Positions 16,751-57,788 of a DNA stretch of 64,000 nt are shown in pieces. The notes under the pieces were generated by a model, which was not told where the DNA came from, did no database searches, and worked only from the letters and a program-made list of their open reading frames with translations. The translations under genes and the position numbers were made by a program. The DNA comes from an uncultured Dehalococcoidia bacterium. Its GTDB lineage: Bacteria > Chloroflexota > Dehalococcoidia > SZUA-161. The DNA is taken from assembly GCA_964524995.1 (NCBI GenBank), contig CAZGDV010000003.1, positions 1,029 to 65,028 on the forward strand, written 5' to 3'. Position 1 is the first letter of the stretch. Every line of letters starts with the position of its first letter.

Positions 16751-16780
16751 TTGACACAAAGAGATTGCCAACTCTATAAT
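16751..16780 (+). promoter_or_regulatory. consensus sigma70 promoter (TTGACA-18 nt-TATAAT) for the cytochrome/FeS/cyt b operon
   Basis: Perfect -35 (16751-16756) and -10 (16775-16780) hexamers in an otherwise GC-rich region. This implies a ~180-nt leader before the ATG at 16970. Confidence 0.65.
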
Positions 16781-16969
16781 GTGCCGGTGGGGGTATCGGG
16801 GGATCGGCGACGGGAAGGGCGATGCCGCCACCGATAGGCTGGGGGGGTACGGTAGGAGTCGGTGGCTCCTCGGTTGGGTGAGTTGGAGTACACGTAATGC
16901 CCCAGGGCGTTCGACCGTGGCGGTTGTGTCAGGGCCGAGCGGCATATCCTTTGGGAGGTTTGAGCTGAG

Positions 16970-17170
16970 ATGAAGCGAGTGCTGTGGTTACTGCTTTCGG
17001 TTCTGGTGGTGTCCGTCTTCGGGGCAGTAGGTTGCAGCGAAGTCACCCCGGACTCCACAGTCTCCGTGGTGAACCAGTGCCTGCAGTGCCATACAGACGA
17101 AGCCACTCTGCAGGAGCTGGCCGTCGAGGAGGAAGATCCAGAGGCCGAGGCCTCCTCAGGCGAGGGCTGA
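16970..17170 (+). CDS. signal-peptide/lipobox-bearing monohaem segment (likely N-terminal part of the downstream cytochrome; ends at an in-frame TGA)
   Basis: Lipoprotein-type signal (VFGAVGCSE), one CLQCH site, an acidic linker. GGGAGG RBS 11 nt upstream. The stop at 17168-17170 is in the same frame as ORF 17180..18277. Confidence 0.6.
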   Translation: MKRVLWLLLSVLVVSVFGAVGCSEVTPDSTVSVVNQCLQCHTDEATLQELAVEEEDPEAEASSGEG

Positions 17171-17179
17171 GGGGGAGCA

Positions 17180-18277
17180 GTGTCTCAGTTGGAGGCATGG
17201 GAGAAGGTCCTCGTCGACAACGAGGACGGCCAATTTGGGAATAGCACTCACGGCATTGTCGGCTGCATGATCTGTCATGAGGGAGACAGCTCCTCTCCCG
17301 ATATGGCCACAGCCCACACCGGTCTGCTGGCAGATCCTTCGTCGGCAGATGCCTGCAGTACTTGTCACGCTGAGATTGAGGCCCACGACGAGTCGAGCCT
17401 GCACAGCACTCTCAGCGGCTTCGAGACAGTCATCGAGTCGAGGGGTGGTGACTTGAGCGAGGGCTCGCTGCTTGTAGAGGCAATGGGCAATCACTGCGAG
17501 TCGTGCCACACGACCTGCGGCCAATGCCATGTAAGCAGGCCGGATTCAGCGGACGGCGGGTTCTTGGACGGTCACGAGTTCGAGGGAACTCCGTCCATGA
17601 CGAATAACTGTACCGCATGCCACGGTTCACGTGTCGGAGACGAGTACCTGGGCCAGAACTCAGGGGTGAAGGCAGATGTGCACAGAAGGAAGGGTATGCA
17701 GTGCTACACTTGCCACAGTGTTGAGTTGCACGGCTCAGGCGAACTCGAGGCGGACAGATACCACAATAGTGAGTCCATCAGCTGTGAGGATTGCCATTCC
17801 GACGTGATCGGGACCAACGCGACGAATACTTACCATCAGATCCACTACAACATACTGTCTTGCCAGGTCTGCCATTCTGTGGAGTACAAGAATTGCTACA
17901 ACTGTCATGTGGAGCAGAGTGAGGAAGGGACCTGCTACTACGTTACCGATCCGTCCGTGATGGGATTCGAGGTCGGGCTGAACCCCATACAGTCTGTCGA
18001 CAGGCCCTATGAATACGTTGTACTGCGCCATGTTCCGGTCAGCCCGGCGACTTTCGCCAGCTATGGCGATAATTTGCTGCCCGATTTCGACGCAACTCCA
18101 ACCTGGAAGTACGCTACACCACACAACATCCAGCTGAACACTCCGCAGAACGACGGCTGCAACTACTGCCATGGACAGGAGCAGATATTCCTCATGCCGG
18201 ATGACGTAGCGGCCGATGAACTGGAGGCCAACGAGGACGTGATTGTCCGGCAAGTCCCAGGGGTCCCGTCCGAATAG
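17180..18277 (+). CDS. decahaem c-type cytochrome (no signal peptide of its own)
   Basis: Ten CXXCH sites (CMICH, CSTCH, CESCH, CGQCH, CTACH, CYTCH, CEDCH, CQVCH, CYNCH, CNYCH). There is no N-terminal export signal unless it is joined to 16970..17170. Confidence 0.8.
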   Translation: MSQLEAWEKVLVDNEDGQFGNSTHGIVGCMICHEGDSSSPDMATAHTGLLADPSSADACSTCHAEIEAHDESSLHSTLSGFETVIESRGGDLSEGSLLVEAMGNHCESCHTTCGQCHVSRPDSADGGFLDGHEFEGTPSMTNNCTACHGSRVGDEYLGQNSGVKADVHRRKGMQCYTCHSVELHGSGELEADRYHNSESISCEDCHSDVIGTNATNTYHQIHYNILSCQVCHSVEYKNCYNCHVEQSEEGTCYYVTDPSVMGFEVGLNPIQSVDRPYEYVVLRHVPVSPATFASYGDNLLPDFDATPTWKYATPHNIQLNTPQNDGCNYCHGQEQIFLMPDDVAADELEANEDVIVRQVPGVPSE

Positions 18278-18317
18278 TCCTCACACTAAGCCAAGATCAG
18301 GGTGCAAGGAGCACGCA

Positions 18318-19193
18318 ATGGAGATCAGCCGAAGGAGCTTTCTCAAGGCCTCAGGAGGTCTGGCCGGCCTGGCCGTGTGCCAGCCACTGGTAACGAAGAC
18401 CGCTCAAGCAGCCACCGACGCTGACAGTGCATCACACAAGGCCATGCTGATTGACGTGACCAAGTGCGTGGGATGCTGGTACTGCTACGCAGCGTGCAAG
18501 AAGCAGAATGGCTATCCAGAGGTGAACAGGCCGACTCCCGATGATCCTCCCGACCTGGCCCACAATGTGTGGACCACTTTGCACATCAGCGAAAAGGACG
18601 GAGTGCAGCGATTCAGGAAGCAGGCCTGTATGCACTGCACGGATGCCGCGTGCGTACGCGTCTGCCCTACCGGAGCTCTCAGCTACAATGAACTGGGCTT
18701 CGTGCAGTACGACAAGGAGAAATGCTCCGGGTGCGGCTATTGCACGCAGTACTGCCCGTTCGAGATACCGCGACTGGACGAAGAAGCGATATCCAACGAC
18801 CGGATAGACAAGTGCACCTTCTGCTTCAGTCGCGTAACGGCCGGCGGACAGACAGCCTGTTCCGCTGCATGCCCGACCGGCGCGATCAAGTTCGGCAACC
18901 GGGGTGAGCTTCTCGAAGAAGGCAAGGCGAGAGTTACAGAGTTGCAGAAAGACAACGCCAAAGCGAGCCTGTACGGCGACAGTGATGTGTTGGGTGGCCT
19001 GCACGTCATGTATGTTCTCGACGATGCTGCGGAGTCCTACGGCCTCCCGGCTGACCCAACCCTTCCCGCACCAGCTGTCGTCCACGAGGTGATACAGTGG
19101 GTTGGGATCGGAGCGTTCTTCGCTATGGTTGGGGGATTCAGCCTCAACTACCTGGTAGCTAGGGCCAGGATTGCCAGAGAGGAGAAGAAGTGA
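18318..19193 (+). CDS. TAT-exported 4x[4Fe-4S] ferredoxin-type subunit with C-terminal membrane anchor (FdnH/HybA/OhcB-like)
   Basis: Twin-arginine signal (SRRSFLKASGGLAGLAV) from the ATG at 18318 after AAGGAG. Four Cys clusters (CVGCWYCYAAC, CMHCTDAACVRVCP, CSGCGYCTQYCP, CTFC...CSAACP). C-terminal TM helix. Confidence 0.85.
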   Translation: MEISRRSFLKASGGLAGLAVCQPLVTKTAQAATDADSASHKAMLIDVTKCVGCWYCYAACKKQNGYPEVNRPTPDDPPDLAHNVWTTLHISEKDGVQRFRKQACMHCTDAACVRVCPTGALSYNELGFVQYDKEKCSGCGYCTQYCPFEIPRLDEEAISNDRIDKCTFCFSRVTAGGQTACSAACPTGAIKFGNRGELLEEGKARVTELQKDNAKASLYGDSDVLGGLHVMYVLDDAAESYGLPADPTLPAPAVVHEVIQWVGIGAFFAMVGGFSLNYLVARARIAREEKK

Positions 19194-19843
19194 TGGAGCC
19201 GCGTATCGTTGAGCGGTTTAAGAAGCGCACCGTCGTATTCCACTGGGTGCATACACTGGCCTTCCTGATGCTGATCATCACAGGTCTCATATTGTTCGTG
19301 CCGTGGTTTGGCGAGGGAGCCGCTGGTGGCGCGACCAGGATCATCCATCGCGTCTTCGCGGTCGTCTTCGTTGTTGCGCCGCTCTTCTACCTGCCACTCA
19401 ACCTGAAGCAGAGTATACATTTCTTCAAGGAGTCGTTCCTGCTAGGCAAGGGGGATCTGGGTTGGATGATGGCAGCACCGGACTATTACTTCGGCGGTCC
19501 CGAGGAAAAGATGCCTCCGCAAGGCCATTCCAATACCGGCCAGAAGATGTGGGGCCAGGTCTGTATCGGCACCTTCATCGTCTTCCTCATCACCGGCATC
19601 ATACTATGGTTCTTCCGTGGTGACGTCTCGCCGGGCGTATTCCAGTGGGCTATGGTGTTCCATTCCATTGCGTTCTTCGTAGCGTTCCTTATGCTCTTCG
19701 TCCACGTGTATCTCGGCGTCATTCACCCGCGAATGACCGAGTCGCTCAAATCCATGCTCGACGGCAAGGTCTCTGTGCACTACGCGAAGAGTCACTATGG
19801 CAAGTGGTACAGTGAGGTTGCCGAGGAGGGCGAGGAGCACTAG
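19190..19843 (+). CDS. membrane dihaem cytochrome b subunit (FdnI / Ni-hydrogenase cytochrome b type)
   Basis: 217-aa protein with four TM helices and conserved His in TM helices (HWVHTLAF, IHRVFAV, FHSIAF, HVYLGVIHP). 4-nt overlap with the FeS gene. Confidence 0.8.
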   Translation: MMEPRIVERFKKRTVVFHWVHTLAFLMLIITGLILFVPWFGEGAAGGATRIIHRVFAVVFVVAPLFYLPLNLKQSIHFFKESFLLGKGDLGWMMAAPDYYFGGPEEKMPPQGHSNTGQKMWGQVCIGTFIVFLITGIILWFFRGDVSPGVFQWAMVFHSIAFFVAFLMLFVHVYLGVIHPRMTESLKSMLDGKVSVHYAKSHYGKWYSEVAEEGEEH

Positions 19844-19864
19844 TAACAAGCTCGTTTGTATGTC

Positions 19865-19908
19865 AAAGAGGCCGCGTCACCTCGGGTGACGCGGCCTCTT
19901 TCTTTCTC
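19865..19908. terminator. bidirectional rho-independent terminator between convergent genes
   Basis: Perfect hairpin AAAGAGGCCGCGTCACC/GGTGACGCGGCCTCTTT with flanking A- and T-runs, between the stops at 19843 (+) and 19921 (-). Confidence 0.85.
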
Positions 19909-19920
19909 AGAGCCTGCGGT

Positions 19921-22110
19921 CTAGGGTCCGTAGGGGCCAAAGTCCTGCCATGGCCTGTAAAACTCGAGATACGTTGCCCAGCTGCTGCCGGTTGCATCGT
20001 AGCTGGGGTCGCTCTGGGTCGCGACTCCGTGACAAAGGGAACCGCTGCACATGGCGTCTGAAGAGCTGGTCTCAGTGCTGTTTCGCAGCACGGCACCCGT
20101 GCTGTTCGTCTTGGTTGCCCCGATCGACGTAACCATCGGGTATCCCCCTGCGCCTGTGTCCTCGATGACGTAGGAGAACCCGTAGCCGGTCCTTCCCGCA
20201 AGGCTGCCATCCCTGATCATAGCATCGTTGGGCCAACCAGCCTGGTATCCGGCGGCTCCGTGGACGTTGTGACAGGAGGAGCAGGCCGTCATGGAATCGG
20301 TGGAACCCGGGGCCGCGCCGTTTGTGGTATCATCCCAGTCCGAGTCCCAAGTCTGCATGGTGTAGTTCATGATATGGGAAACGTGCTCGTTGATGTCGGC
20401 GCCACTTCCCCAGGCGTAGGAGTAGTTCCGTGGTGGATTGGGGGCAGTCGCCTTGAAGTTCGTGGTTAACGACGCCGGAGTATCATCCAGAACGCTGTTG
20501 GGATCATGACAGGAGTCGAAGCACAGCCTGAACCCGTTGTCCTTCATCGTCTGCGCGTTGTAGCTGAACGTGATGCTGTAGTTGGATGGGATCATAAGGG
20601 GCACTTCGCCGCCGACGTAAGCCAGCCGGTACCCGGCGGCGTAGGCCACACCTGACTCGCTCGGCGAGTAGTATGACGTCTGGAACTCGTATGTCCTCGG
20701 GATGCCATCGATGTGCGTCCCCGTCTCCGTATCGTGGCAGTCCTCGCACTCCACGGATGCGGATCTGCCGTGGCCGGCCGTCCAGAACAGGCTGACGTCC
20801 GGGGCCGATACGCCCGCGATGACCGCAGGGTCATCGTCGTGACAGCCGACGCACCACTGCTCCTTGCCCGCCTGCAAGGGGCTGCCGTACACACCGCTGG
20901 ACCAGTTCGCCTTGGCCCCGATCGTCGGATCGTTCACCCCGTCGTAGGAGCCACCCGGGCTGTGACATGTGTCACAAGCTGCGGTGGTCGCAAGAGGCAG
21001 GCCATCGCTGAACAGCGAGTAGTTATCATCGTCATGGCAATCGGTGCAGTCTAATGGCGTGGATGGGCCCTTGCTGTTCGCAGTCGTGTGAGTGGCGTGG
21101 CTCCCAGATGTGCCGTGGCATGCAGCACAATCGCCGCCTCCCGCCCCCCCGTGGCCTACCCCCTCACCCGTGGGCTGATGGCATTGCGTACACACTTTCC
21201 GATTCTTGGCCGAAAGCAGGCGGCTGTCATAGGCACCACCCGCAGCCGCCATCGGATCGGGCAGACTCACCGAGCCGCTGTACGCCCCCATCGTCGCACT
21301 CGTGCCGTGCGCTACATGGCAGCGCAGACACCCACCGGAGATCTGCGTGTTGTGTCGGTAGCTGAATACCGCGTCACCCGAATGAATATGCCCTTGCCCG
21401 GCCCCAGCTCCATACCTCGTGTGACACTGCGAACACCACTCGTCCAGGTTGTACGGGGTGTAGGTCACATCACGGTAGTACTGTGTCGTGCCGTTACCGG
21501 TGTTGTAGGTTATCTCATATGTCGGCGTGCCCGTCTCGTCCGATACGTCCACGGCCGTGGTATTGCCCTCATCCGCCATACCGTCGGGATTTCCCCTGAG
21601 TATTCGGTAGTTGCCGTTGCCATGCGGATTGTGACAGTCACCGCAGGCCAGGTCCACTGCTATGCCGTAGTCAGGGGTTGCGTTCACCGGACCGCTGCCC
21701 CAAATCGTGCCCGACGTGATCCCGTCGGCGGTGTGGGCCGAGGTGACCAGCCTGCTCGTGATGTTGCCATTGACATCGACATCCATAACGGCGTAATCGA
21801 AGCCGCCGCCCCGGAGCCCGGAGCCCGACGTCCCGTATGTGCTGCCGTCGAGCTCTCCGTTGACGACGTCGGTCTCGGCACCTGTGCCGTCGTGACAGCT
21901 GAAGCAAAACTGGTCCTGAGTGGGGCCTACGGTGAGGAGTTTGGGGGCCTGGCCGGTGTGAGCCCTGTGACAGCCCGCGCATGAGTCCGCCCCCGTCTGG
22001 AAGTTGTCCTTGTCATGCAGGTCGTTGTCAGCAAGCGCTGGAGTCGCTGCTATCAGCATCGCCAGGACGATGACAGCGACCAGGGCATATCTAAGCAAGG
22101 GGATCAACAT
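19921..22110 (-). CDS. multihaem c-type cytochrome, paralog A (hexahaem N-module plus haem-rich C-extension)
   Basis: Signal peptide ending ALA|DNDLHDKDNF. 12 CXXCH plus CFDSCH (CX3CH) and CSGSLCH (CX4CH). The first two sites form a paired-CXXCH arrangement. Confidence 0.9.
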   Translation of the reverse strand: MLIPLLRYALVAVIVLAMLIAATPALADNDLHDKDNFQTGADSCAGCHRAHTGQAPKLLTVGPTQDQFCFSCHDGTGAETDVVNGELDGSTYGTSGSGLRGGGFDYAVMDVDVNGNITSRLVTSAHTADGITSGTIWGSGPVNATPDYGIAVDLACGDCHNPHGNGNYRILRGNPDGMADEGNTTAVDVSDETGTPTYEITYNTGNGTTQYYRDVTYTPYNLDEWCSQCHTRYGAGAGQGHIHSGDAVFSYRHNTQISGGCLRCHVAHGTSATMGAYSGSVSLPDPMAAAGGAYDSRLLSAKNRKVCTQCHQPTGEGVGHGGAGGGDCAACHGTSGSHATHTTANSKGPSTPLDCTDCHDDDNYSLFSDGLPLATTAACDTCHSPGGSYDGVNDPTIGAKANWSSGVYGSPLQAGKEQWCVGCHDDDPAVIAGVSAPDVSLFWTAGHGRSASVECEDCHDTETGTHIDGIPRTYEFQTSYYSPSESGVAYAAGYRLAYVGGEVPLMIPSNYSITFSYNAQTMKDNGFRLCFDSCHDPNSVLDDTPASLTTNFKATAPNPPRNYSYAWGSGADINEHVSHIMNYTMQTWDSDWDDTTNGAAPGSTDSMTACSSCHNVHGAAGYQAGWPNDAMIRDGSLAGRTGYGFSYVIEDTGAGGYPMVTSIGATKTNSTGAVLRNSTETSSSDAMCSGSLCHGVATQSDPSYDATGSSWATYLEFYRPWQDFGPYGP

Positions 22111-22233: not shown

Positions 22234-24924
22234 CTATTCTGCGAGTTCGAGCTTCACGGCGTCGGCACAGATTCGGCCATCGGTCTCATCGCTGAGGGTC
22301 ACGTACCCCGATGTGCCAGCCGAGAAAGGGTAGGTGCCAAGGAGGTTCCACTGTCCCCCGTTCACCTGCTGGTTCACGTCTATCGTAGTCTCACCACCGT
22401 CGTAGTGAATCGTGTAAGGAGCGTCGGTAGCCCTTCCTGTAGCCTGATGCCACCATGCATAGACATCATAGGCCCCCGATTGCGGCAGGTCAGGTGTCCA
22501 GGTGGCTGTGGCGCTGACGGTCGTATTGCCATCATGGCGATAGAAGTCACCATTGAAGGCGTTATCATTCTCGATATAGCTCCAGCCCGTGCCGGTGAAC
22601 AGGGCATCGCGGTCGTCGACGATTGCTCGCGGCACATAGGGCCGGTAGTACTCGAAGGACGCCTGTCTGGGGTTGAACTCCTGGTCCAACTCCTCGAGAT
22701 AGCTATGGCAGTTGAAGCACATCCCACCCACATTGTTGCCGCCGGGGCCGTACTGCCAGCCCATGCGGAAGATCGCACCGTCGCTGGTCTCCCTGGTGGT
22801 GTCGAGAGAGGTCATTGTAGGGGGCGAGGTCTGGCCGTCCCAGATTACGTACGAGAAGGCGAAGCCGAGCCTGAAGTCGTCCTCGCGATCGTAGGTAAGG
22901 CTCCCGTCCCGGATCATCGGCTGGTTCGACGAGCCCAGCGTTCCGGCGACCCCGTGGACGTTGTGACAGGTGGAACAAGTGAACAGTGAGTCGTATCCTT
23001 GACCGAACGTATCTGTGCTGCTATCCCAGTCCGAGTCCCATGTGCGTGCACTTCCAGGGTGATGCGACATCTCGACCAGGTGATAGTAGTGCTCATTGGT
23101 CTGCGCCGGGTCGCCCTCCCCCCAACCATAGGACCACTTGAATGGCGGATTGGGCGGCCGCTCGCGCTTGAAGTACGTGTCGTAGTTGTCCTCCAGCATG
23201 AAAGTTGTGTAATGACAGCCCGAGTCGAAGCACAACCCGGCCCCGTACTTCTTGTATACCATGTCGTCGGCTATCTCCGTATCCGAGGAGCCCACGAACG
23301 TGGTGCCCCAGCTCATCGGTATCATGAGGGGAACACTGCCGTAGACTGATCTCAGCCTGTACCCTGCCTGATAGTCGACGCCGGTGCTCGAAGGCGTGTG
23401 CTGTGATATCTCCGTGAATGCGTACGTTCTGTCGTCTCCATCGATGTGCGTGCCGGTGGTCGTATCATGGCAGTCCTCACAGGCGAGTACGCCGGACCGG
23501 CCGTGGCCGCTCATCCAGAACAGGCTTACGTCGGGCGCGCTCACACCCGCGATCACCGCAGGCTCATCGTCGTGACAGCCCACGCACCACTGCTCCTTGC
23601 CCGTAGCCAACTGGCCGTCGTAGGCCCCGACATCCCATACGGACTTCGCTCCCAGGTAAGGATCATCCACACCATCGTAGGTGCCGCCTGGACTGTGACA
23701 CGCATCACAGACAGCCGTGCTGTCCAGGCTCTCCCCGTCCGCAAACAGAGGATACTGATCCGTGTCGTGGCAATCCGCACAATCCAGGGGAGTCGCAGGG
23801 CCCCTGGTGTTGACTGTTGTATGGGTCGCGTGACTGCCCGAGGTGCCGTGGCATTCCGAGCAGTCGGCACCTGAGCTGTGGCCCACTACCTTGCCGTCCA
23901 CGACATGGCACTCGGCACAGACCTTGCGACTGTTGACCGACAGCAACCGGCTGTCGGTCGTGCCCCCACCCGGCGTGCCGTCCGGAAGAGGCACCGTCCC
24001 ACTGTGGGGCCCCATCGTCGCCGTTGTGCCATGCGCAACGTGGCATCGGAGGCAGCCACCGGTCAGGCTGCTGGTGTTGTGGCGGAACGTGTACACTGCG
24101 TCGCCGGACGGCGTCTGAATCTGGCCGGTGCCTGCATGATATCTCGAATGGCACTGGGAGCACCAATCGTCTAGGTTGTATGGCACGTACGATACATCGC
24201 GATAATACAGGCTGCTACCGTTGCCCGTGTTGTACGATATCTCATAGGTCGGGGTATCTAGTTCGTCCGGCACGTCTACGGCTGTCGAGTTACCCTCGTC
24301 CAGCATACCGTCCGGGTTGCCACGGAGCACCCTGTAGTTACCGTTGCCGTGCGGGTTGTGGCAGTCGCCGCATTCCAGCGTCAGCATGTTCCCGTAGTAC
24401 GGTGTGCTGCTCGTCACGCCGCCGCCCCAGGCAGTCGAAATGGAGTTGTCGACGTTGTGGGAGGAGGTTACATTGCCGACGGAAGGGGTGCCAGATAGCC
24501 CAGAGTCCATAACGGCGTACTGGAAACCGCCCCCGCGCAGACCGGCACCGAGCGCGCCGTAGGTCATCCCATCCAACTCGCCGTTCATGACGTCGGTCTC
24601 GGCACCGCTGCCGTCATGGCACGTGTAGCAGAAGTTCGCCTGGCTGGGTCCCGAGAGGAGGAGACTGGCGGCCTGACCGGTGTGCGCCCTGTGGCACTTC
24701 GCGCAAGCGTCAGCCTCACCCACGAAGTTGTCCTTATCGTGCACGTCGTTATCAGCCAAGGCCGGAACGGCAGACACGACGAGAACGAGAAACGTGCAGA
24801 GGAAGACAAGTACTCTGGCCAACGGATACCACCATGAACAGTGTCTAATCCTATAGGGTAAACGCGAGGCGGTCACTTGGCAAACGCGACACTTCACTGA
24901 ACCTACCGTTATTGAAGACGCCAA
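22234..24924 (-). CDS. multihaem c-type cytochrome, paralog B, with C-terminal golvesin-like binding domain
   Basis: Collinear with paralog A. 13 CXXCH plus CFDSGCH. The C-terminal ~130 aa carry the YDVYAWW...APYTIHYDGG...VNQQVNGGQWNLLGTY...ADAVKL pattern. The true start is probably the in-frame TTG at 24822, just before the signal peptide. Confidence 0.85.
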   Translation of the reverse strand: MASSITVGSVKCRVCQVTASRLPYRIRHCSWWYPLARVLVFLCTFLVLVVSAVPALADNDVHDKDNFVGEADACAKCHRAHTGQAASLLLSGPSQANFCYTCHDGSGAETDVMNGELDGMTYGALGAGLRGGGFQYAVMDSGLSGTPSVGNVTSSHNVDNSISTAWGGGVTSSTPYYGNMLTLECGDCHNPHGNGNYRVLRGNPDGMLDEGNSTAVDVPDELDTPTYEISYNTGNGSSLYYRDVSYVPYNLDDWCSQCHSRYHAGTGQIQTPSGDAVYTFRHNTSSLTGGCLRCHVAHGTTATMGPHSGTVPLPDGTPGGGTTDSRLLSVNSRKVCAECHVVDGKVVGHSSGADCSECHGTSGSHATHTTVNTRGPATPLDCADCHDTDQYPLFADGESLDSTAVCDACHSPGGTYDGVDDPYLGAKSVWDVGAYDGQLATGKEQWCVGCHDDEPAVIAGVSAPDVSLFWMSGHGRSGVLACEDCHDTTTGTHIDGDDRTYAFTEISQHTPSSTGVDYQAGYRLRSVYGSVPLMIPMSWGTTFVGSSDTEIADDMVYKKYGAGLCFDSGCHYTTFMLEDNYDTYFKRERPPNPPFKWSYGWGEGDPAQTNEHYYHLVEMSHHPGSARTWDSDWDSSTDTFGQGYDSLFTCSTCHNVHGVAGTLGSSNQPMIRDGSLTYDREDDFRLGFAFSYVIWDGQTSPPTMTSLDTTRETSDGAIFRMGWQYGPGGNNVGGMCFNCHSYLEELDQEFNPRQASFEYYRPYVPRAIVDDRDALFTGTGWSYIENDNAFNGDFYRHDGNTTVSATATWTPDLPQSGAYDVYAWWHQATGRATDAPYTIHYDGGETTIDVNQQVNGGQWNLLGTYPFSAGTSGYVTLSDETDGRICADAVKLELAE

Positions 24925-41778: not shown

Positions 41779-41793
41779 GCCGCGAGGCCGGTC

Positions 41794-42498: not shown

Positions 42499-42511
42499 GG
42501 AGGTAATACAA

Positions 42512-42661
42512 ATGGACGACCTGGGCTACGTGTTCGCGGCCTATTCGATCATCTGGGCAATCATGTTCCTCTTCGTGTTGTCCCTCTACTGGAAGGAAAG
42601 GAGACTGCGGCGTGACGTCGACCGGCTCCGCGCCTTGCTCGACGAAGACAAGCGTGACTGA
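42512..42661 (+). CDS. ccmD: small membrane protein CcmD (below the ORF-track size cutoff)
   Basis: The ATG at 42512 after a GAGGAGG RBS encodes 49 aa (MDDLGYVFAAYSIIWAIMFLFVLSLYWKERRLRRDVDRLRALLDEDKRD). This is one TM helix plus a basic tail, in the canonical position after ccmC. Confidence 0.75.
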   Translation: MDDLGYVFAAYSIIWAIMFLFVLSLYWKERRLRRDVDRLRALLDEDKRD

Positions 42662-50941: not shown

Positions 50942-50944
50942 CGG

Positions 50945-51853
50945 CTACTGCTCCCTCAACTGGTTGAGACGAGCGCCCGCAAGAGTGTTGTCCGGGTCCA
51001 GCTCCAGGACCGCCTGGTACGCCTCGATGGCATCCTGGGTCTGGCCAACCTTCTCGTAGGTCATGGCGAGTCCGAGATGCGCCTCGGCGAACTGCGGGCC
51101 ACCCGCTACGGCTGCCCCCAGGTTATCGAGAGCCTGTTCGTATCTCTCGCTGCAGTAGTCGACCATACCGGTCGCATAGGCGGCGCCGGTCGTGTTGCCG
51201 ACCTCCTGGTAACAGTGGGCAAGCTCTTCATATGCTTCGGTGAAGGTCGGGACGAAGCGTATGGCCTCCAGCAACCACTCAATCGCATCGTTGCACTGGC
51301 CCATGTCGCTGTACGCCACTCCCAGAAAATATCTCGAGTCAGCATCGGTACTCATCGCGACGGACGTAGCTCTCAGAGGTTCGATCGCCTTCTCGGGCTC
51401 ACCCAGAGCAATGTAGATACGCCCCAGATCGTATTGCGCGCGCTGGAGCTGTTTGTTCAACCCCCTCATGGGGTTGTCCTCGTTCAACTCGACGACTTTC
51501 AGGTAGGGCTCGAGCGCATCTTCGTACTTCTCCTGGTCCATGTAGACAGCGCCGAGAATCATGTAGGCCATCTCGTATTCGTCGTTCTGCGCGAGCAGGA
51601 ACTCGGCCTGATCGATAGCCTCATCGTAGGCGCCAGCCTCGATGTAGTAAGCTGCAAGTTGGACTCTCAGGCTACTGTTGAACGGGCTCTCTTCCAGCAG
51701 CTTCTCGATCCGCTCAATCTCCCTTTCCACCATTGACTTGTCGGAGGTCGACGTGTCACGCAGCCCGACAATCAAGCCGACCACCAGCCCGACTATCGCC
51801 ACCAGGACGAAAGCTATAAGGAACCTTCTACTACGTCTTGTGAGGAAGTCCAA
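50945..51853 (-). CDS. membrane-anchored TPR-repeat protein
   Basis: N-terminal TM helix, then multiple 34-aa TPR-like repeats (AYYIEAGAYDEAI, LGRIYIALGEPEKAIE, LAMTYEKVGQTQDAIEAYQAVLELDPDN). TTG start after GAGAGG. Confidence 0.75.
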   Translation of the reverse strand: MDFLTRRSRRFLIAFVLVAIVGLVVGLIVGLRDTSTSDKSMVEREIERIEKLLEESPFNSSLRVQLAAYYIEAGAYDEAIDQAEFLLAQNDEYEMAYMILGAVYMDQEKYEDALEPYLKVVELNEDNPMRGLNKQLQRAQYDLGRIYIALGEPEKAIEPLRATSVAMSTDADSRYFLGVAYSDMGQCNDAIEWLLEAIRFVPTFTEAYEELAHCYQEVGNTTGAAYATGMVDYCSERYEQALDNLGAAVAGGPQFAEAHLGLAMTYEKVGQTQDAIEAYQAVLELDPDNTLAGARLNQLREQ

Positions 51854-52021: not shown

Positions 52022-53410
52022 CTACTGGGTGAACTCGTGGCAGTCCACGCAGTTCTCGCGGTTCTTGAGCTTGTGCGTGATAGCCGGCACTCCACCCTCG
52101 CTCACCTCATGACACGCATCACAGAGGTTATCACCATAGCCTGTGTGGCTGCTGGGGAGGGCACCTATCTGCCCAGCGGTGTGGCACCGATTGCACGGGC
52201 TCTTGTCCAACTCATGTGGCAACTCAGGCGGAAGTGTGCGCGTCACGTCATGACACACCAGACATGTGTTGTCAAGACGCCCCGTGTGTGTAACCGGCAA
52301 TTGCACTAGTGCCGTCGAGTGACACTCGGAGCATGTCTCGTGTGCCTGGACCTTGTGCATGATGGCTGGGGGCAGCCCCTCCATCTCCTCATGACAGACA
52401 CCACACGTAGGATTGGCGCGGCCGTCATGGCTCGATGGCAGCGCCACTAGAGCTCCCTTGGAATGGCAGGCAATGCACGCACCCTTACCTTCGGTTGTGT
52501 GGGCTATCACGGGCGGCAGGTCGCCTGCCGACGCCGCGTAGTGACAGGCTTGGCATGTGCCGCTCGCCCTGCCTTCGTGGGAGGCAGGTAGAGCAACCAA
52601 GGCGTTGGCAGAATGACAGGATGTGCAGTCGCGGTTCTTGCTATGCGACTCCGTCGGCGCGAATCCGGCCGACACGTCATGGCAGCCCAAACACGTCTTG
52701 TCGGCGCGACCCTCGTGCGTCGCTGGCAATGCGACCATAGCACTACCTGAGTGACACGATGAGCACGGAGTCGCTACCTTCAGCCGGTGGGCATCGGGCG
52801 GCAGGTCCGTGGTCTGCACATGACACATAGTGCATGTGTTAGTCGTCCGGGGCGAGTCGCCTTGGTGACTGACCGGCAGAGCCACAAGGGCAGTGCTGGA
52901 GTGGCAGTTGTCGCACTTGGTTCGGCCCTCATAGGCGTGCGCTCCCGCAGGGGGGCCCCCGGGATAGAGGACGTGGCACCCTAGGCAGCTGTCGTTGGTC
53001 CGCCCTGCGTGCGTTATCTTCACTGGCCAGACACCATACAGGTCGTGACAAGCCAAGCAGTCACTTCTGCCTTCGGCTGTGTGGGCCAAGTAAGGGCCCA
53101 CACTTGTTGCCGGAGGAGTCGCTGTGGGCACTGTCGTTGGGGTAGGTTGGGCCGGGGTTGGGGAAACCGTCGGCTCTGCAGGCGACTCAGTGGGTGGGAC
53201 CGGGGTCGCTGTCGGCGATCCCGTGACCGGTGGTGAGGGCAGGTCGCTAGAGCCCCCCGGGTTCTCCTCCCCACAGCCAACCAAGGGGGTTACGATCAGG
53301 GCCGTTAGCGCCAGGATGAGAAGCAACCTGTATAAAGGCCTGCTTCCCCGCAAGGCAGAGTACGGGCGGGGGTGGTGCGAGTGAGGTCCGGTGCTCTGTC
53401 TGCTCGTCAT
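52022..53410 (-). CDS. 15-haem tandem-repeat lipoprotein cytochrome c
   Basis: Lipobox LVGCGE, a Pro/Thr-rich linker, then 15 CXXCH arranged as seven dihaem repeats (CxxCH-x3-4-ALVALPxSHxGR-x3-5-CxxCH...PP..H) plus a terminal haem. Confidence 0.9.
   Translation of the reverse strand: MTSRQSTGPHSHHPRPYSALRGSRPLYRLLLILALTALIVTPLVGCGEENPGGSSDLPSPPVTGSPTATPVPPTESPAEPTVSPTPAQPTPTTVPTATPPATSVGPYLAHTAEGRSDCLACHDLYGVWPVKITHAGRTNDSCLGCHVLYPGGPPAGAHAYEGRTKCDNCHSSTALVALPVSHQGDSPRTTNTCTMCHVQTTDLPPDAHRLKVATPCSSCHSGSAMVALPATHEGRADKTCLGCHDVSAGFAPTESHSKNRDCTSCHSANALVALPASHEGRASGTCQACHYAASAGDLPPVIAHTTEGKGACIACHSKGALVALPSSHDGRANPTCGVCHEEMEGLPPAIMHKVQAHETCSECHSTALVQLPVTHTGRLDNTCLVCHDVTRTLPPELPHELDKSPCNRCHTAGQIGALPSSHTGYGDNLCDACHEVSEGGVPAITHKLKNRENCVDCHEFTQ
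52025..53098 (-). repeat. in-gene tandem repeat: seven ~45-50-codon dihaem units
   Basis: Recurrent peptide blocks, e.g. CSSCHSGSAMVALPATHEGRADKTCLGCH, CTSCHSANALVALPASHEGRASGTCQACH, CIACHSKGALVALPSSHDGRANPTCGVCH. Confidence 0.8.
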
Positions 53411-53678: not shown

Positions 53679-53713
53679 GGTAACAATTTCACTTGAGTTG
53701 ACATGCTGTCACC

Positions 53714-56431
53714 CTAGGGCACGGTAGTGAAGGACGTCTCAATTGAGAAGTCAGACCACTCTCCGTGATCATCCTGGTGTCGCAAATGCCAATAGTAGGT
53801 TGTGCTACTTGCCAACTCCATGCCTACGGTGTGGCTGGTAAGATCACCCGTCGGCCCCGTGTCGTATAGTGGAGAAGAGTAGTCACCTTGCACGGTAGTG
53901 ACCTGCCACTGCGATGCCTGATGTGTGTCACCGGCGTCCGGGTCTACGAAGCCTGAGGAAACGAGCGTAAGTATCAAGGGTACGTCACCAGCGCCGTCAC
54001 CAGGCGAGGTGTTGGTCGGGCTTGTTGGCGGCGCGTTGTAGGTGGCGAATGACCACGAGTCGAAACTGAGAGTGTTGGGTACGTACGCCATGTCATCAAC
54101 TGTGACAGAGACAACCATCGTCTCGCCGTTGGGGAAGTCCAGTGCCGGGTCGACTGCGGCATTGTAGGATGTGGAGTTTCCAGTGTGTGAGACCTCGGGG
54201 CTGGTGCTCCCGTATATCTGCACATAGCCCGGGCCGGTGATCTCAATCGTGAATGAACTCCAGTCTACACCTGTCTCCGTGTCGCTGATCGAGAAAGTGA
54301 GATTGCCATGAACGGGTATATCTATCGACCCGGAACCAGGACTGAGGTCGTTGATCTCCGGCAACGTTGTGTCCTCATGAACGGTGAACTGCCAAGCGTA
54401 CGGCTCAAGTGAGTTCGGGAGCGGAGCCAGGTCCTGTACGCCTACCACCACGGTTATTGTCTCGCCGTAGCCGAAGTCGACTCGTGGATCGATCAACACG
54501 TCGTAGGCGGGAGGGCCTCCGACCTGAGAGACAACGTCCGTATCGCTAGCGGTGTAGGTCTGGCTATAGCCGCGATCTCCCGTCAGCTGTACGGTGAACG
54601 TGCTCCAGCTGACACCCATTTCGCTGTCAGCCAACAAGAGGGTAAGATCGACGTCAAGGGGCTGGCCCGACGCTCCGTTGGTCGGGCTCACGTTTGACAT
54701 CGTCGGCGGCTGAAGGTCTGTGAGGCCGATTATCGGGGAGCGATAGTAGGTTATCTCCCCGGGTCCCATGTGACAGCCATCACACACCTTACTGTCGGCA
54801 ATGCTGCCCGCCCCGTGCCCGCCGAGCGGAGGCATATCCCCATAGTAGCTGTCACTGAGCAAGGTGGTTGCGTTCCCATAGACATCGCTCCACTTGAAGT
54901 CCAATGCCGGGACTTTGTCGGCCGAGCCTGGGGAGCTGATGAGTTCGCCGTGCCGGATCATCTGGGGTGTCGGGGAACCATGCACGTTGTGACAGGCTGT
55001 ACAGCTGATCCGCGAGTCGGTGCTCATGTCCCAGTCCGAATCCCACTGACCGGGGTTCGCACTGAGGTGTCTCGAGTGGCTGCTGATTCCTTCACCTTCA
55101 TCCCGGAAGTTGGTGTTGTATGGAGACGTGCTGTCGAGTATTCCGTTGTATTTGTGGCATTCGAAGCAGAGTTCGAACTTGTCTTCGCCCCAGCCGGCAC
55201 CCGCCGACAACGGTATGGTCATCGAGTACAGGAGTCGATAGCTGCTGTCATAGTCCGTCGCCCCAGCCACGTACGTTCTGGGATCGCCGTCGATATGCGC
55301 GCCGTCCGCGACGTGACAGTCGGTGCACTCGACCAGACCTCTCTTGCCGTGACCGGTCACATCGTACCCGTATGACGATCCGTCACCCACCACAGACGGG
55401 GCCTGGACGTTTCGTATGGTGGAGTTGCCGTCGTCGTGGCAACCCCGGCACGAGATGCGGGCGCCCGTCAGCCAGCTGGCTTTAGCTTCGGCTACTCCGT
55501 CATGTGCGCCGCCCCCGCTGTGACACGGGTCGCAGGTGGTGGTGTTGCCCAAGTCCTGTCCGTCATTGAAAGTCACGGTGCCGTCGTCATGGCCATCGCC
55601 CACCGACACGTCTGAGTGACAAGAGCCGCAGCTAGTGATGTAGGGGCCATACTCTTCTGTGTAGTGAGTGGCATGAGCGCCATCCCGGTTGGGGGCCTGA
55701 CTTCCGTTAGGGGGCAGCCCATGGCATCCGCTGCCGCCAATGGAGCAAGTCATGAACCCGTCATCGGTCGACGATGCGTTATCTACATCGTGGGGGTGAC
55801 AGGCCGTGCAGTCTGTCGCGCGAAGGTCACCCGAATATGCAGGTGCTGGTTCATGAACGCCGCCGGCATGAACGCTCATCGGATACCCGGAGTTGTCAGT
55901 GATGTTGATGTGGCAGGTGACACAGATATCATCGGTGTCCGTGTCATCGTCCGAATCCTCGTCAAACGAGTCGACGCCGGTCGTTGCCGAGTAGACAACG
56001 GCATAGCCACCTATGCTCTCCCAGATTTGACACAGGTTGTCCTGGGAGGAATGCGGGTCGTGACAAGCCACGCAGTCCAGCGTGAAGGGGAATTCCTGTG
56101 GACTGAAGTGCAACACCGGTGACTCCGCGTTGGCGTTTGAATGGGTGGACGATACCTTCGAAGAACCTGCTCCATCGTGACAGGTGAGGCAAAGAGCGTT
56201 GTTGGATGTTTCCGAGATGGCGGTGCTGCCCTTGGCGCTGTGTACACGATGGCACCTGGCACACGCATCGGCCTCCGGCAGGATGTCGTCGTGAGGATTC
56301 TGTGCTCCAACGCTGTAGACCGCGGAAAGGGCCAACACGATGCACACAACGCCCAGACTGGCAGCGAAGCGACACCGCTGTGGTGTCACCAGTGCCCGTG
56401 TTCTGCCAATACCACCGGTCCAGAGACTCAT
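53714..56431 (-). CDS. multihaem c-type cytochrome, divergent paralog E, with C-terminal Ig-like/FN3-like domain array
   Basis: Signal peptide. 12 CXXCH plus CSIGGSGCH. The middle region is collinear with the C-extensions of paralogs A and B. The last ~330 aa form two ~112-aa Ig-like repeats plus a third beta-domain (YYWHLRHQDDHGEWSDFS). Confidence 0.85.
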   Translation of the reverse strand: MSLWTGGIGRTRALVTPQRCRFAASLGVVCIVLALSAVYSVGAQNPHDDILPEADACARCHRVHSAKGSTAISETSNNALCLTCHDGAGSSKVSSTHSNANAESPVLHFSPQEFPFTLDCVACHDPHSSQDNLCQIWESIGGYAVVYSATTGVDSFDEDSDDDTDTDDICVTCHINITDNSGYPMSVHAGGVHEPAPAYSGDLRATDCTACHPHDVDNASSTDDGFMTCSIGGSGCHGLPPNGSQAPNRDGAHATHYTEEYGPYITSCGSCHSDVSVGDGHDDGTVTFNDGQDLGNTTTCDPCHSGGGAHDGVAEAKASWLTGARISCRGCHDDGNSTIRNVQAPSVVGDGSSYGYDVTGHGKRGLVECTDCHVADGAHIDGDPRTYVAGATDYDSSYRLLYSMTIPLSAGAGWGEDKFELCFECHKYNGILDSTSPYNTNFRDEGEGISSHSRHLSANPGQWDSDWDMSTDSRISCTACHNVHGSPTPQMIRHGELISSPGSADKVPALDFKWSDVYGNATTLLSDSYYGDMPPLGGHGAGSIADSKVCDGCHMGPGEITYYRSPIIGLTDLQPPTMSNVSPTNGASGQPLDVDLTLLLADSEMGVSWSTFTVQLTGDRGYSQTYTASDTDVVSQVGGPPAYDVLIDPRVDFGYGETITVVVGVQDLAPLPNSLEPYAWQFTVHEDTTLPEINDLSPGSGSIDIPVHGNLTFSISDTETGVDWSSFTIEITGPGYVQIYGSTSPEVSHTGNSTSYNAAVDPALDFPNGETMVVSVTVDDMAYVPNTLSFDSWSFATYNAPPTSPTNTSPGDGAGDVPLILTLVSSGFVDPDAGDTHQASQWQVTTVQGDYSSPLYDTGPTGDLTSHTVGMELASSTTYYWHLRHQDDHGEWSDFSIETSFTTVP

Positions 56432-56514
56432 CTGCTGGGTATCACGCCGTACCGTGGGACATATGAAGAGGGCAGGGCTCCGTCAGATGCCGAGCCCCGC
56501 CCCATAACTCGTCG

Positions 56515-57711
56515 TCAATCATTGGTTAGGTTGCTGCCATCGTGGCAGACGGTACAGACGGCCCGGTTGTCCAACGACAGCAGGCGGCTTTCGAGCGATG
56601 GTGTCGCCCCCTGCGACGTGCCGTCTGGGTAGGAGACCGCTCCCGAGTATGACGCCATTGTGGCCGCAGTGCCGTGCGCAACGTGACACGCAAGACAACC
56701 CTCGAGATGACCAGGGGTAGGCTTGTCTTCACCGTGGCATATATTGCAGTCTTCCCGATGGTTATAGGGGCCGTGACACTGCCCACAGTCGACGTTGTAC
56801 AGGGGCTCGTTCCAGTGTCCGTGGGTATGAGCATAGCCGCTGCCGGGACCACCCTGCAGCGCGAACTTGTCCTCATGACACTTGATGCACCCGTTCTCGT
56901 AGGTCGGCGATCCTTTGACCCAATGGCGAAAGGCGAACACGACGTCAGAGGAATCGCTACCTCCTGATCCCGCTCCACACTCATACCGTGTGTGACACGC
57001 CCCGCACCAGTCCACGAGAGTCAGCAGCGTGTCCCCATCATACCCCAGCGGAGTCCAGTTGCCTCCGGGTAGCTCGTCCCACACCTGTCGGTAGTTGTCG
57101 GCATTGTATCCTATTTCGTAGATAACGGGGTACTGATCAGGCACGTCCACCGGGAGAGACGTCCCCTCATCTTCCATACCGTCCGGATTGCCCCTCAGAA
57201 TACGGTAGTTGCCATTCCCATGCGGGTTGTGACAGTCGCCACAAGCCAGCTCTACCGTGACGCCATAATCCTCAATGGTGGAGTTGATCGGGCCGCTGCC
57301 CCAGATTGTCCCGCTTGTAGCCCCGCTCGCCGAGTGAATGGAGCTGACCACAGCCGTGGTGATATTGCCATCGTGGTCTGTGTCCATCGTGGCGTTCTCG
57401 AAGCCGCCACCCCTCAGGCCGGCACCAGTAGAGCCGTATGATGTGCCATCGAGCTCACCGTCGACGACATCTGTCTCCGCGCCGCTGCCGTCATGGCATG
57501 TGAAGCAGAAGTCGTCCTGGTTGGGACCTGACGTCAAGAGGTTGGGAGCCAGTGCGGTGTGGGCCCTGTGACAGCCGGCGCAGGAGTCAGCGCCGACTGC
57601 GAAGTTGTCCTGGTCGTGGAGGTCGTTGTCGGCTATTGCTATGCCGCCTGCGCTGGAAATCGCCAGCGCGAGGAGTAGCGTGGCAACCAATACCCCTCGC
57701 CATCGTGTCAT
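56515..57711 (-). CDS. nonahaem c-type cytochrome, paralog F (core module with a 3-haem insertion)
   Basis: Signal peptide ending IAIA|DNDLHDQDNF. Nine CXXCH, including the extra CIKCH, CGQCH and CNICH between core sites 4 and 5. Confidence 0.9.
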   Translation of the reverse strand: MTRWRGVLVATLLLALAISSAGGIAIADNDLHDQDNFAVGADSCAGCHRAHTALAPNLLTSGPNQDDFCFTCHDGSGAETDVVDGELDGTSYGSTGAGLRGGGFENATMDTDHDGNITTAVVSSIHSASGATSGTIWGSGPINSTIEDYGVTVELACGDCHNPHGNGNYRILRGNPDGMEDEGTSLPVDVPDQYPVIYEIGYNADNYRQVWDELPGGNWTPLGYDGDTLLTLVDWCGACHTRYECGAGSGGSDSSDVVFAFRHWVKGSPTYENGCIKCHEDKFALQGGPGSGYAHTHGHWNEPLYNVDCGQCHGPYNHREDCNICHGEDKPTPGHLEGCLACHVAHGTAATMASYSGAVSYPDGTSQGATPSLESRLLSLDNRAVCTVCHDGSNLTND

Positions 57712-57758
57712 CCGGTCGATTCTCTCCGTGTCTCCCTGTTCGTTCGCGGTTGTCTTGT

Positions 57759-57788
57759 ATTATACCCATCAATAAGAGAAGTCGTCAA
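57759..57788 (-). promoter_or_regulatory. consensus-like sigma70 promoter (TTGACG-18 nt-TATAAT) for the paralog F-E unit
   Basis: The reverse complement reads TTGACG (57783-57788), an 18-nt spacer, then TATAAT (57759-57764). There is a GGAGAGAA RBS before the ATG at 57711. Confidence 0.6.

Follow-up and report, generated by a model that had tools for sequence, protein, structure and literature searches.

Which electron-transfer process is served by a long, uninterrupted block of multi-haem cytochrome genes in an uncultured Dehalococcoidia bacterium from sediment? The block lies in a stretch of 64,000 nucleotides from the SZUA-161 lineage of the Chloroflexota (assembly GCA_964524995.1, contig CAZGDV010000003.1, positions 1,029 to 65,028 of the forward strand), which is called here the window. 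Its most distinctive gene encodes an undecahaem lipoprotein cytochrome c, named cyc11, with a candidate selenocysteine (Sec) residue. Taken together, the genes suggest that the island probably encodes a quinone-linked extracytoplasmic system, composed of a sulfur-linked selenocytochrome core and an extracellular extension.

The listing of open reading frames (ORF), the motif count and the Pfam and NCBIfam scans place the block at positions 16970-57711, where about 30 genes are contiguous. These include eight multi-haem cytochrome genes and a pair of genes for FdnH-like iron-sulfur (FeS) and FdnI-like cytochrome b subunits. The supply side consists of hemA, hemL, hemC and cobA-hemD, of ahbAB-sirC, ahbC and ahbD, and of ccmABCDEF. 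The remainder comprises a haem c sensor kinase with its regulator and the TPR, NHL and zinc-ribbon proteins. The haem sites amount to 83 CXXCH motifs (82 in the cytochromes and one in the sensor kinase), on top of which there are six variant CX3-6CH sites. The chance expectation, estimated from the amino-acid frequencies, is below 0.1 in about 5000 residues.

An earlier note on this DNA had named the same components, among them a quinone-linked cytochrome/FeS/cytochrome b module (16970-19843, plus strand), a haem c sensor kinase with a regulator and the TPR, NHL and zinc-ribbon membrane proteins, and the Pfam and NCBIfam scans recover all of them in place. The manual count of about 80 CXXCH and about six CX3-6CH sites also agrees with the 82 and six now counted in the cytochromes. 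On the other hand, the nine cytochrome genes become eight, as the mono-haem ORF 16970-17167 and the ten-haem ORF 17180-18277 are one gene. The description of the island as self-contained does not hold either, because hemB and CcmG/H are absent from the window.

An undecahaem cytochrome with a candidate selenocysteine

The cyc11 gene (16970..18277, plus strand) encodes 435 residues with a lipobox (AVGC), 11 CXXCH motifs and the candidate Sec at residue 67. The upstream ORF of 66 codons (16970-17167) contains the lipoprotein signal and the eleventh CXXCH, and is followed in the same frame by the ten-haem ORF, which has no signal peptide of its own. A single TGA at 17168 parts the two. This in-frame UGA (17168..17170, plus strand) lies in the motif SGEG-U-GG and is followed by a hairpin resembling a selenocysteine insertion sequence (SECIS) at 17180..17198 on the same strand, which starts 10-12 nucleotides past the UGA. 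The site reads SSGEG-U-GGAVSQLEAWEK in the window and TTGEG-U-GGELPPLEVWEK in the Dehalococcoidales version.

A scan with protein alignment finds at least 440 relatives of cyc11 in metagenomes. The TGA was counted in the best 80 of these, in five metagenome-assembled genomes (MAG) of Dehalococcoidales and in the window. The codon is TGA at 79 of 79 orthologous sites, always in frame, and no TAA, TAG or Cys codon occupies any of them. The five Dehalococcoidales MAG carry it within the same motif, (S/T)GEG-TGA-GG. TGA terminates 20 of the 48 window genes, TAG being the commoner stop, and therefore the codon is not globally reassigned; such a reassignment was considered and is ruled out. The 365 codons past the TGA keep ten CXXCH motifs and ten invariant His residues. 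The hairpin is the minimum-free-energy structure in all three sequences folded. Over 40 distinct orthologues, 94% of the cells in its stem are paired and one pair shows compensatory changes (AU/GC/CG). The invariant TGA and the hairpin about ten nucleotides downstream make the codon a selenocysteine candidate, and this assignment is considered very likely to be correct. Gene callers annotate cyc11 as two ORF because of this candidate selenocysteine codon.

Dehalococcoidia are among the most selenoprotein-rich bacteria (PMC13326102). One related contig with an orthologous operon, L104, also carries a canonical FdnG gene with an in-frame TGA (L104:13252-16479, motif CARI-U-HSATV), followed by FdnH- and FdnI-like ORF and by two more that are FdhE/FdhD-like by position only. 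This organism appears to decode Sec, because its canonical Sec-containing FdnG adjoins the selenocytochrome operon.

The alignment of 48 unique full-length cyc11 forms contains an invariant lipobox Cys, an invariant Sec67 and ten invariant His residues outside the haem motifs. Eleven CXXCH motifs are present in 37 of the forms and ten in the other 11. Two Met residues are nearly invariant, and no Cys outside the CXXCH motifs is invariant in the 48 forms. The gene of a sister species (contig L026) is one continuous ORF of 433 residues (L026:13841-15142, minus strand). About 20 residues past the site, this protein contains an additional His (FVHDVH), which may be a ligand replacement. The pattern of His and Sec residues is compatible with a Sec at or on a haem. 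The count of spare ligands was rejected as proof of a Sec-haem bond, because the two conserved Met are also possible ligands.

No close relative of known function is apparent for cyc11. The matches to Pfam and NCBIfam are sub-threshold cytochrome matches only, and the single sequence finds only weak HAO matches in the PDB. The cyc11 profile matches 28pb_A weakly (E=1e-6) over about 65 residues. Three families of cytochrome-type selenoproteins have been listed, namely ExtKL (NF040886), GSU2204 (NF041027) and the octahaem tetrathionate reductase type (TIGR04315) (2026 review, PMC13188914). Full-length cyc11, with U replaced by C, matches none of these three models (NF040886 at E<=1).

Membrane partners and the association with sulfur genes

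The two genes after cyc11 encode its predicted membrane partners. The first (18318..19193, plus strand) specifies an FdnH/HybA-like FeS protein that is exported by the twin-arginine translocation (TAT) pathway, holds four [4Fe-4S] clusters and is anchored in the membrane by its C-terminus (Pfam Fer4_11 and TAT_signal). The second (19190..19843, plus strand) specifies an FdnI-like membrane cytochrome b (Ni_hydr_CYTB, Pfam PF01292). In NCBIfam, the FeS protein scores 181 bits against the formate dehydrogenase beta model TIGR01582, below the cut-off of 335, and the cytochrome b scores 111.4 bits against TIGR01583, whose cut-off is 115.85. There is no gene for a molybdopterin alpha subunit in the window, and the cytochrome stands in its place.

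The neighborhood of the orthologous operons gives a hint of the chemistry. A gene for a tandem-rhodanese lipoprotein directly precedes the selenocytochrome gene in 44 of the 48 operons with enough upstream sequence (L054:8688-9686, L033:8579-9640, L104:8592-9656 and 41 other loci). Both rhodanese domains have the active-site Cys in L054, the one that was inspected. A repressor of the CsoR/RcnR family is found in 41 loci, e.g., L054:12645-12965 and L104:12819-13121, both on the minus strand, and sits downstream of the cytochrome b gene in the loci examined. Two examples of it contain two Cys residues and have Tyr, not His, at the copper-ligand position; with this fingerprint, it may be a CstR-like persulfide sensor. 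The frequency of the upstream rhodanese suggests sulfur or polysulfide chemistry, with cyc11 as a sulfur-handling enzyme. The combination of rhodanese, Sec, multi-haem cytochrome and quinone module would point to zero-valent sulfur or polysulfide (or selenium) as the material handled. Because the candidate Sec is found at 79 of 79 sites and the rhodanese in 44 of 48 operons, cyc11 is probably not a plain wire.

The membrane module is not always the same. In a more distant lineage (L087:5268-9628), the selenocytochrome gene comes after NrfC-like and NrfD-like genes and not before FdnH/FdnI-like ones, so that the membrane modules of the selenocytochrome appear interchangeable. The same contig contains a second selenocytochrome copy at about 15960.

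A precedent is MccSep (ExtKL, GSU2937-2936) of Geobacter sulfurreducens, a pentahaem Sec-containing polysulfide reductase (PMC13510729). Both proteins are extracytoplasmic c-type multi-haem cytochromes in which an in-frame UGA splits the annotation, a SECIS-like hairpin is present and the Sec is placed in a Gly-containing loop. The ExtH protein of the MccSep cluster is a rhodanese-like lipoprotein, of the kind encoded in most cyc11 operons. The differences are equally clear. MccSep has five haems and cyc11 has 11. The Sec of MccSep belongs to a D-G-U-P loop of a C-terminal Ig-like domain, beside a His/Cys-ligated haem, whereas that of cyc11 is residue 67 in GEG-U-GG. As a soluble homotetramer, MccSep also differs from the lipoprotein cyc11, whose gene is accompanied by those of the FeS and cytochrome b subunits.

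For the membrane part, the analogues are FdnGHI and the Desulfovibrio Ohc complex. Both share with the island an outward four-cluster FeS subunit with a membrane tail, a quinone-coupled cytochrome b and an operon of three genes. FdnG contains Sec, like cyc11, whereas FdnGHI has a molybdopterin subunit that the island lacks, and the FeS and cytochrome b proteins of the island stay below the formate dehydrogenase equivalog cut-offs. In Ohc, a multi-haem cytochrome replaces the molybdoenzyme, as in the island, and electrons are described as passing from periplasmic cytochrome c to the FeS subunit and then to a membrane haem b protein (PMC4641369). OhcA is an octahaem protein that is not known to contain Sec, and cyc11 has 11 haems; the likeness noted here is one of arrangement. 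As for sulfur respiration, the comparison is with PsrABC and Sud. This system of Wolinella succinogenes is quinol-linked, with an FeS subunit and an extracytoplasmic rhodanese-type sulfur carrier. The Psr complex has a molybdoenzyme catalytic subunit and an NrfD-type anchor, whereas the cyc11 complex would have a selenocytochrome and an FdnI-type cytochrome b.

The surrounding island and its conservation

The other seven cytochromes fall into two kinds. Six of the eight, i.e., all except cyc11 and a 462-residue protein, are paralogues by alignment and bind 6-14 haems. They share an N-domain of 5-6 haems with the mature N-terminus DNDLHD, which is 50-62% identical among five of the proteins and 28% in the sixth, the protein of 905 residues. 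Two short forms, of 311 residues (34847..35782, minus strand; five CXXCH and CLSGCH) and of 341 residues (42932..43957, plus strand; five CXXCH and CTDPTSCH), flank the ccm genes. The other four lie on the minus strand. The cytochrome of 398 residues (56515..57711; nine CXXCH) has a four-haem insertion in its N-domain. A C-module of seven haems is present in the secreted cytochromes of 729 residues (19921..22110; 12 CXXCH and two variant sites) and 862 residues (22234..24822; 13 CXXCH and one variant), the latter with a C-terminal Golvesin_C domain, and also in the 905-residue cytochrome (53714..56431; 12 CXXCH and one variant), which combines its divergent N-domain with Ig-like (Big_5) domains.

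More than 1000 proteins belong to the N-domain family, and those with a source name are labelled Chloroflexota. The orthologue of the 729-residue cytochrome in the sister species is 84% identical. The C-module also occurs alone, in a 441-residue protein of a Thermodesulfobacteriota MAG (L028:941-2266) that is 59% identical to the module of the 729-residue cytochrome (window 19921-21100), and similar modules are found in Poribacteria and Spirochaetota proteins. Identity this high between different phyla suggests that a domain under functional constraint was transferred horizontally.

The 462-residue protein (52022..53410, minus strand) is a 15-haem, MtrA-like lipoprotein with the lipobox LVGC, a Pro/Thr-rich tether of 60 residues and di-haem repeats. 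It matches MtrA (6r2q_A) weakly, with E=9e-9. In a full HMMER scan, it falls into a broad family of di-haem-repeat proteins, some of them longer than 3000 residues, and no named informative relative is found.

The earlier statement that none of the cytochromes resembles a textbook reductase is borne out by the hidden Markov model and structure searches, which gave no convincing solved relative. None of the eight reaches the curated NCBIfam cut-off of a characterized family, and the only cut-off passed is that of the generic "doubled CXXCH" domain. The best MtrA-type score (TIGR03508) among the island cytochromes is at most 60 bits, with a cut-off of 192, and some of them match MtrC domains II/IV weakly. 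The 729- and 905-residue proteins have no sequence relatives in the PDB and no sequence matches to the nanowire cytochromes OmcS, OmcE and OmcZ. In the AlphaFold2 model of the 729-residue cytochrome, the N-domain has a predicted local distance difference test (pLDDT) score of about 90.

Every cytochrome has a signal peptide or a lipobox, and the FeS protein has a TAT motif. The organism belongs to a monoderm lineage. These export signals in a monoderm lineage therefore make an extracytoplasmic electron-transfer system the sensible reading. The location had been proposed as extracellular or periplasmic; its extracytoplasmic part stands, and a placement that is extracellular, as opposed to one at the cell surface, is inferred.

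The haem synthesis genes are all encoded on the minus strand. They comprise hemL (glutamate-1-semialdehyde aminomutase, 24992..26284; Pfam and NCBIfam), a cobA/hemD fusion (uroporphyrinogen-III methyltransferase and synthase, 26263..27789; Pfam), hemC (27786..28712; Pfam) and hemA (glutamyl-tRNA reductase, 28709..30004; Pfam). These are followed by a fusion of AhbA, AhbB and SirC/CysG-N with 546 residues (30001..31641), combining sirohaem decarboxylase with a precorrin-2 dehydrogenase/chelatase domain. In NCBIfam, it scores 227 bits against NF040708 (cut-off 140), 251 bits against NF040707 (cut-off 125) and 149 bits against cysG_Nterm. Two radical SAM proteins come next. The first (31643..32737), of the radical SAM/SPASM type, best matches AhbD, the haem b synthase (TIGR04545, 462 bits, below the cut-off of 500). 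The second (32727..33896) best matches NirJ1 (TIGR04054, 545 bits) and AhbC (TIGR04546, 526 bits), where each cut-off is 650, and no nir genes are near it. A MerR-family regulator identified by family scan (33893..34564) completes the group. Domain scans find no hemB in the island or in the whole window; in the operon of the relative L033, hemB is placed between hemL and cobA/hemD (L033:12188-14453, the window counterpart being 24992-27789). The haem operon noted earlier is thus present as regards hemA-C-D/cobA-L and ahbABCD, with AhbC and AhbD below their cut-offs and with ahbA, ahbB and sirC fused, and it is without hemB.

The ccm operon is encoded on the plus strand. CcmE (36371..36754) is the Cys variant (CPSKY) by family scan and sequence, and this Cys form (CXXXY) is found in 33 of 33 related loci. 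It is followed by CcmF (36757..38739; family scan), by a membrane protein with a cytoplasmic zinc ribbon (38740..39195), by a lipoprotein or membrane protein of 384 residues (39196..40350) and by ccmA, ccmB, ccmC and ccmD (40376..42661; family scans). The zinc-ribbon protein is fused to CcmF in the sister species, where the fusion has 758 residues. The 384-residue protein belongs to no family and is conserved inside Dehalococcoidia ccm operons. A short cytoplasmic motif, DLDxxFERGxxxExxYxExR (E=3e-6), recurs in both proteins and is SHOCT-like. Domain scans of the window proteins reveal no CcmG, CcmH or CcmI. The Ccm operon that had been called complete is complete as the variant System I set CcmABCDEF, and lacks CcmG/H/I. 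This variant System I of archaea and sulfate reducers and the Ahb haem pathway have reportedly been described before, by Allen et al. in 2006 and Bali et al. in 2011, with the CXXXY form of CcmE, no CcmH and haem b made from sirohaem, as here. The differences are the Chloroflexota host, the 384-residue and zinc-ribbon members of the ccm operon and the AhbA-AhbB-SirC fusion.

The genes between the ccm operon and the 15-haem lipoprotein are all on the minus strand. A LuxR-type response regulator (44075..44734; family scan) adjoins a sensor histidine kinase of 962 residues (44734..47622), in which a domain scan places one CSSCH in the extracytoplasmic domain and, after this domain, HAMP, GAF and HisKA_3; PF21563 matches weakly across the haem site. 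The next three products were also characterized by domain scan. The first is a membrane protein of 481 residues (47680..49125) with a duplicated outer domain and a C-terminal zinc ribbon. The duplication, in tandem, covers about 180 residues (49% identity, E=4e-55) and belongs to no known family. A paralogous relation between this protein and the 384-residue protein of the ccm operon was rejected (E=0.21). The others are a membrane-anchored NHL beta-propeller protein (49079..50941) and a membrane-anchored TPR protein (50945..51853).

The nearest relatives of CcmF in a species-level genome collection, with 53-63% identity, are all from Dehalococcoidia, Dehalococcoidales or Chloroflexota MAG. 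In the sister species (GCA_964574685.1, contig CAZNOI010000018.1, 53 kb), all of the about 30 genes are present in the same order and orientation, from the 398-residue cytochrome to the cytochrome/FeS/cytochrome b operon. The protein identities range from 34% to 84%, with 63% for CcmF. The flank past the cyc11 operon differs, with genes for a PemK toxin, coaBC, coaX and secA in the relative and tkt and rpiB in the window. At this boundary (L026:15688-16195), a 54-residue ORF precedes the PemK-type toxin gene in the place of the transketolase gene, possibly forming a toxin-antitoxin pair with it.

More distant genomes keep parts of the block. A tar-biofilm MAG (L011) has a run from hemD to the ahb genes, the MerR gene, a cytochrome gene, ccmE and ccmF. 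In L033 and L034, ccm is followed by the cytochrome operon and then by hemL-hemB-cobA/hemD-hemC-hemA-ahbAB. The TPR-NHL-cytochrome-cytochrome module, in which the NHL gene is kept together with the TPR and cytochrome genes, stands alone in a Dehalococcoidales genome of 1.73 Mb (L027) and adjoins ccm in a Chloroflexota MAG (L111). The core, with ccm back to back with cyc11, FeS and cytochrome b genes, is all that is present in five Dehalococcoidales MAG, and it occurs with nothing else attached in every metagenome contig with enough flank (about 25). By this comparison, the 40-kb island is best described as a set of modules that came together in this lineage and that are linked in varied arrangements elsewhere, and the core as conserved in Dehalococcoidia. 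The block that the earlier note put forward for a synteny search is thus colinear as a whole in a second species. Its view that such genes are rarely clustered needs revision, since the link between ccm and the quinone-linked cytochrome complex is the rule in Dehalococcoidia.

The G+C content is about 0.6 and flat over the whole window, and therefore there is no compositional island; horizontal acquisition of such an island is unsupported. On the left, the block is flanked by the pentose-phosphate genes gnd, pgi, rpiB and tkt, which form a compact cluster at its border (11380-16523; 6-phosphogluconate dehydrogenase-like, PGI-like, rpiB and tkt). Further left are a branched-chain amino-acid ABC transporter, a CoA transferase and a thiolase. 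The right flank contains CutA1, a PAS histidine kinase and an MMPL protein. Two small ORF of 88 and 110 residues on the minus strand (16474-17106) overlap the promoter and the N-terminal region of cyc11. They have no family matches and are probably not genes.

Proposed electron path and competing explanations

In the proposed mechanism, the core would consist of the variant CcmABCDEF operon, placed back to back with the operon of a three-subunit membrane complex. The selenocytochrome, the FeS protein and the cytochrome b would form a complex on the outward side of the membrane that links the quinone pool to cyc11. Electrons would then move, in either direction, between the quinone pool, cytochrome b, the FeS protein, the selenocytochrome, the tethered 15-haem wire and the secreted cytochromes, and the chain would end at an extracytoplasmic, probably insoluble substrate. 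In the window lineage, this core would have been joined by the Ahb pathway, the six paralogous cytochromes, the 15-haem lipoprotein, the TPR, NHL and zinc-ribbon proteins and the kinase with its regulator. The 15-haem lipoprotein and the secreted paralogues would extend the chain outward, the TPR, NHL and zinc-ribbon membrane proteins may act as scaffold or assembly factors, and the haem c kinase may sense the redox state outside the cell. By association, the core would most likely act on zero-valent sulfur, on polysulfide or on a related chalcogen. In that case, the island as a whole could plausibly target elemental sulfur, the alternatives being Fe(III)/Mn(IV) minerals, humics and partner cells.

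A more specific version is put forward tentatively, as possible rather than probable. The cyc11, FdnH-like and FdnI-like proteins may form a new family of quinone-coupled selenoenzymes and the ancestral principal cytochrome c complex of Dehalococcoidia from sediments, which would respire or oxidize zero-valent sulfur or polysulfide delivered by the surface rhodanese and would later have been co-opted as a gateway. The Sec is proposed to be at a haem or to ligate it because there are 11 haems for ten invariant spare His residues and because the Sec-less orthologue gained a His.

Several observations weigh against the sulfur-linked selenocytochrome system. The cyc11 of the sister species has neither Sec nor Cys, and its GEGxGG motif is missing. 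No homologue with Cys at the Sec position is found among 86 loci, which is unusual for selenoproteins. Only one pair of the hairpin covaries, and the hairpin overlaps conserved codons. An Rfam scan around the UGA gives chance matches only and no SECIS family, a tRNA scan of the window finds no tRNA, and selA, selB and selD are not seen among the window proteins scanned with Pfam and NCBIfam. The rhodanese and CsoR-like genes are missing from the window and from its closest relative, so that the sulfur assignment rests on distant orthologues and may not apply to the island. The FdnI-type cytochrome b is best known from Fdh-N, where electrons pass inward to quinone, and the direction may therefore be uptake and not discharge. 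As for the secreted cytochromes, the N-domain model has no PDB relative (Foldseek ranks OmcS, 6ef8, first, at E=0.21 and TM-scores of 0.13-0.19), and the AlphaFold2 model of the stand-alone C-module is unreliable, with a pLDDT of 49.

Four other explanations can be set beside this one. If the TGA at 17168 were a true stop, the locus would encode a mono-haem lipoprotein of 66 residues and a separate ten-haem protein, or a pseudogene. The split made by the gene callers and the absences of an Rfam SECIS family, of a Cys homologue and of Sec machinery in the window speak for it. It is nevertheless highly improbable in view of a TGA that is invariable and always in frame where TAG is the commoner stop, of a downstream ORF that keeps every haem motif without an export signal, of the continuous ORF in the sister species and of a hairpin at canonical spacing. 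There is just as little probability that unrelated cytochrome, haem and ccm genes merely came to stand side by side. Their modules do occur apart in other Dehalococcoidia, but the colinearity of 30 genes between species that differ in their flanks and share only 63% CcmF identity argues against coincidence, as does the repeated linkage of ccm to cyc11, to hem/ahb and to the TPR-NHL-cytochrome module.

The other two explanations concern the function. The island may serve pure extracellular electron transfer to minerals, humics, electrodes or partner cells, where the core is a quinol dehydrogenase, the Sec is structural or a haem ligand and no sulfur is handled. The window lacks the rhodanese, and the sister species has lost the Sec and still keeps the entire island. 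The seven further multi-haem cytochromes fit a conduit as well, since some have surface domains of the Ig-like or Golvesin_C type and one is the tethered, MtrA-like wire of 15 haems. MtrCAB and other porin-cytochrome conduits, and the surface cytochromes of metal-reducing monoderms such as OcwA of Thermincola, likewise rely on multi-haem chains that carry electrons past the cytoplasmic membrane; unlike the porin-cytochrome conduits, the island belongs to a monoderm lineage and the window has no porin-like gene. NHL proteins are also found repeatedly in known clusters for extracellular electron transfer such as Uet of Candidatus Tenderia and Gallionella, where they accompany multi-haem cytochromes in electron exchange (PMC10734462), whereas Uet has a porin and a peptidyl-prolyl isomerase, uses periplasmic carriers with three haems and is without ccm, haem-synthesis or Sec components. 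A conduit alone is rather unlikely, as the core complex is mostly found without extra cytochromes but with the rhodanese, and the invariant Sec argues for chemistry over mere wiring. The system may also run inward, taking electrons from an extracytoplasmic donor, be it sulfide, polysulfide, thiosulfate, Fe(II), a cathode or a partner cell, and reducing quinone through an energy-conserving redox loop like that of Fdh-N. The closest matches of the FeS and cytochrome b subunits are the beta and gamma subunits of formate dehydrogenase-N, Ohc is described with the direction from cytochrome to membrane haem b (PMC4641369), and rhodanese and His/Cys-type haem are also found in sulfur oxidation, for example in TsdA, as cited in PMC13510729. 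This appears quite unlikely, since the window encodes no terminal oxidase or reductase to consume the quinol and the precedent of MccSep is reductive, and the sequence itself does not fix the direction.

The sulfur-linked selenocytochrome system with an extracellular extension thus remains the preferred reading. Its kinds of components are already known, as multi-haem gene clusters and as a Sec-containing multi-haem enzyme. What appears to be new is a family of 11-haem selenocytochromes with the GEG-U-GG site, seemingly wired to FdnH/FdnI-type subunits. Also apparently new are its near-obligate pairing with ccm, and mostly also with rhodanese, in Dehalococcoidia, and its place within a conserved package of 30 genes. 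A search of the available literature found no account of the Dehalococcoidia cluster or of a GEG-U-GG cytochrome.

Dehalococcoidia are among the most abundant bacteria of anoxic marine and saline sediments, and the energy conservation of the non-dehalogenating members is poorly known. A conserved quinone-linked complex present in at least 440 metagenome stretches is a strong and testable candidate for Dehalococcoidia respiration. The cyc11 protein would add one more family to the cytochrome-type selenoproteins, next to ExtKL/MccSep, GSU2204 and the octahaem tetrathionate reductase type. If the more specific version is true, the window lineage turned a selenoenzyme into the gateway at the membrane for secreted multi-haem cytochromes whose network had newly expanded. 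The package of 30 genes, with haem supply, maturation, wiring and sensing, offers a natural unit for heterologous expression and metatranscriptomic probing, and for studies of how an enzyme of sulfur metabolism might become, in evolution, a conduit for extracellular electrons.

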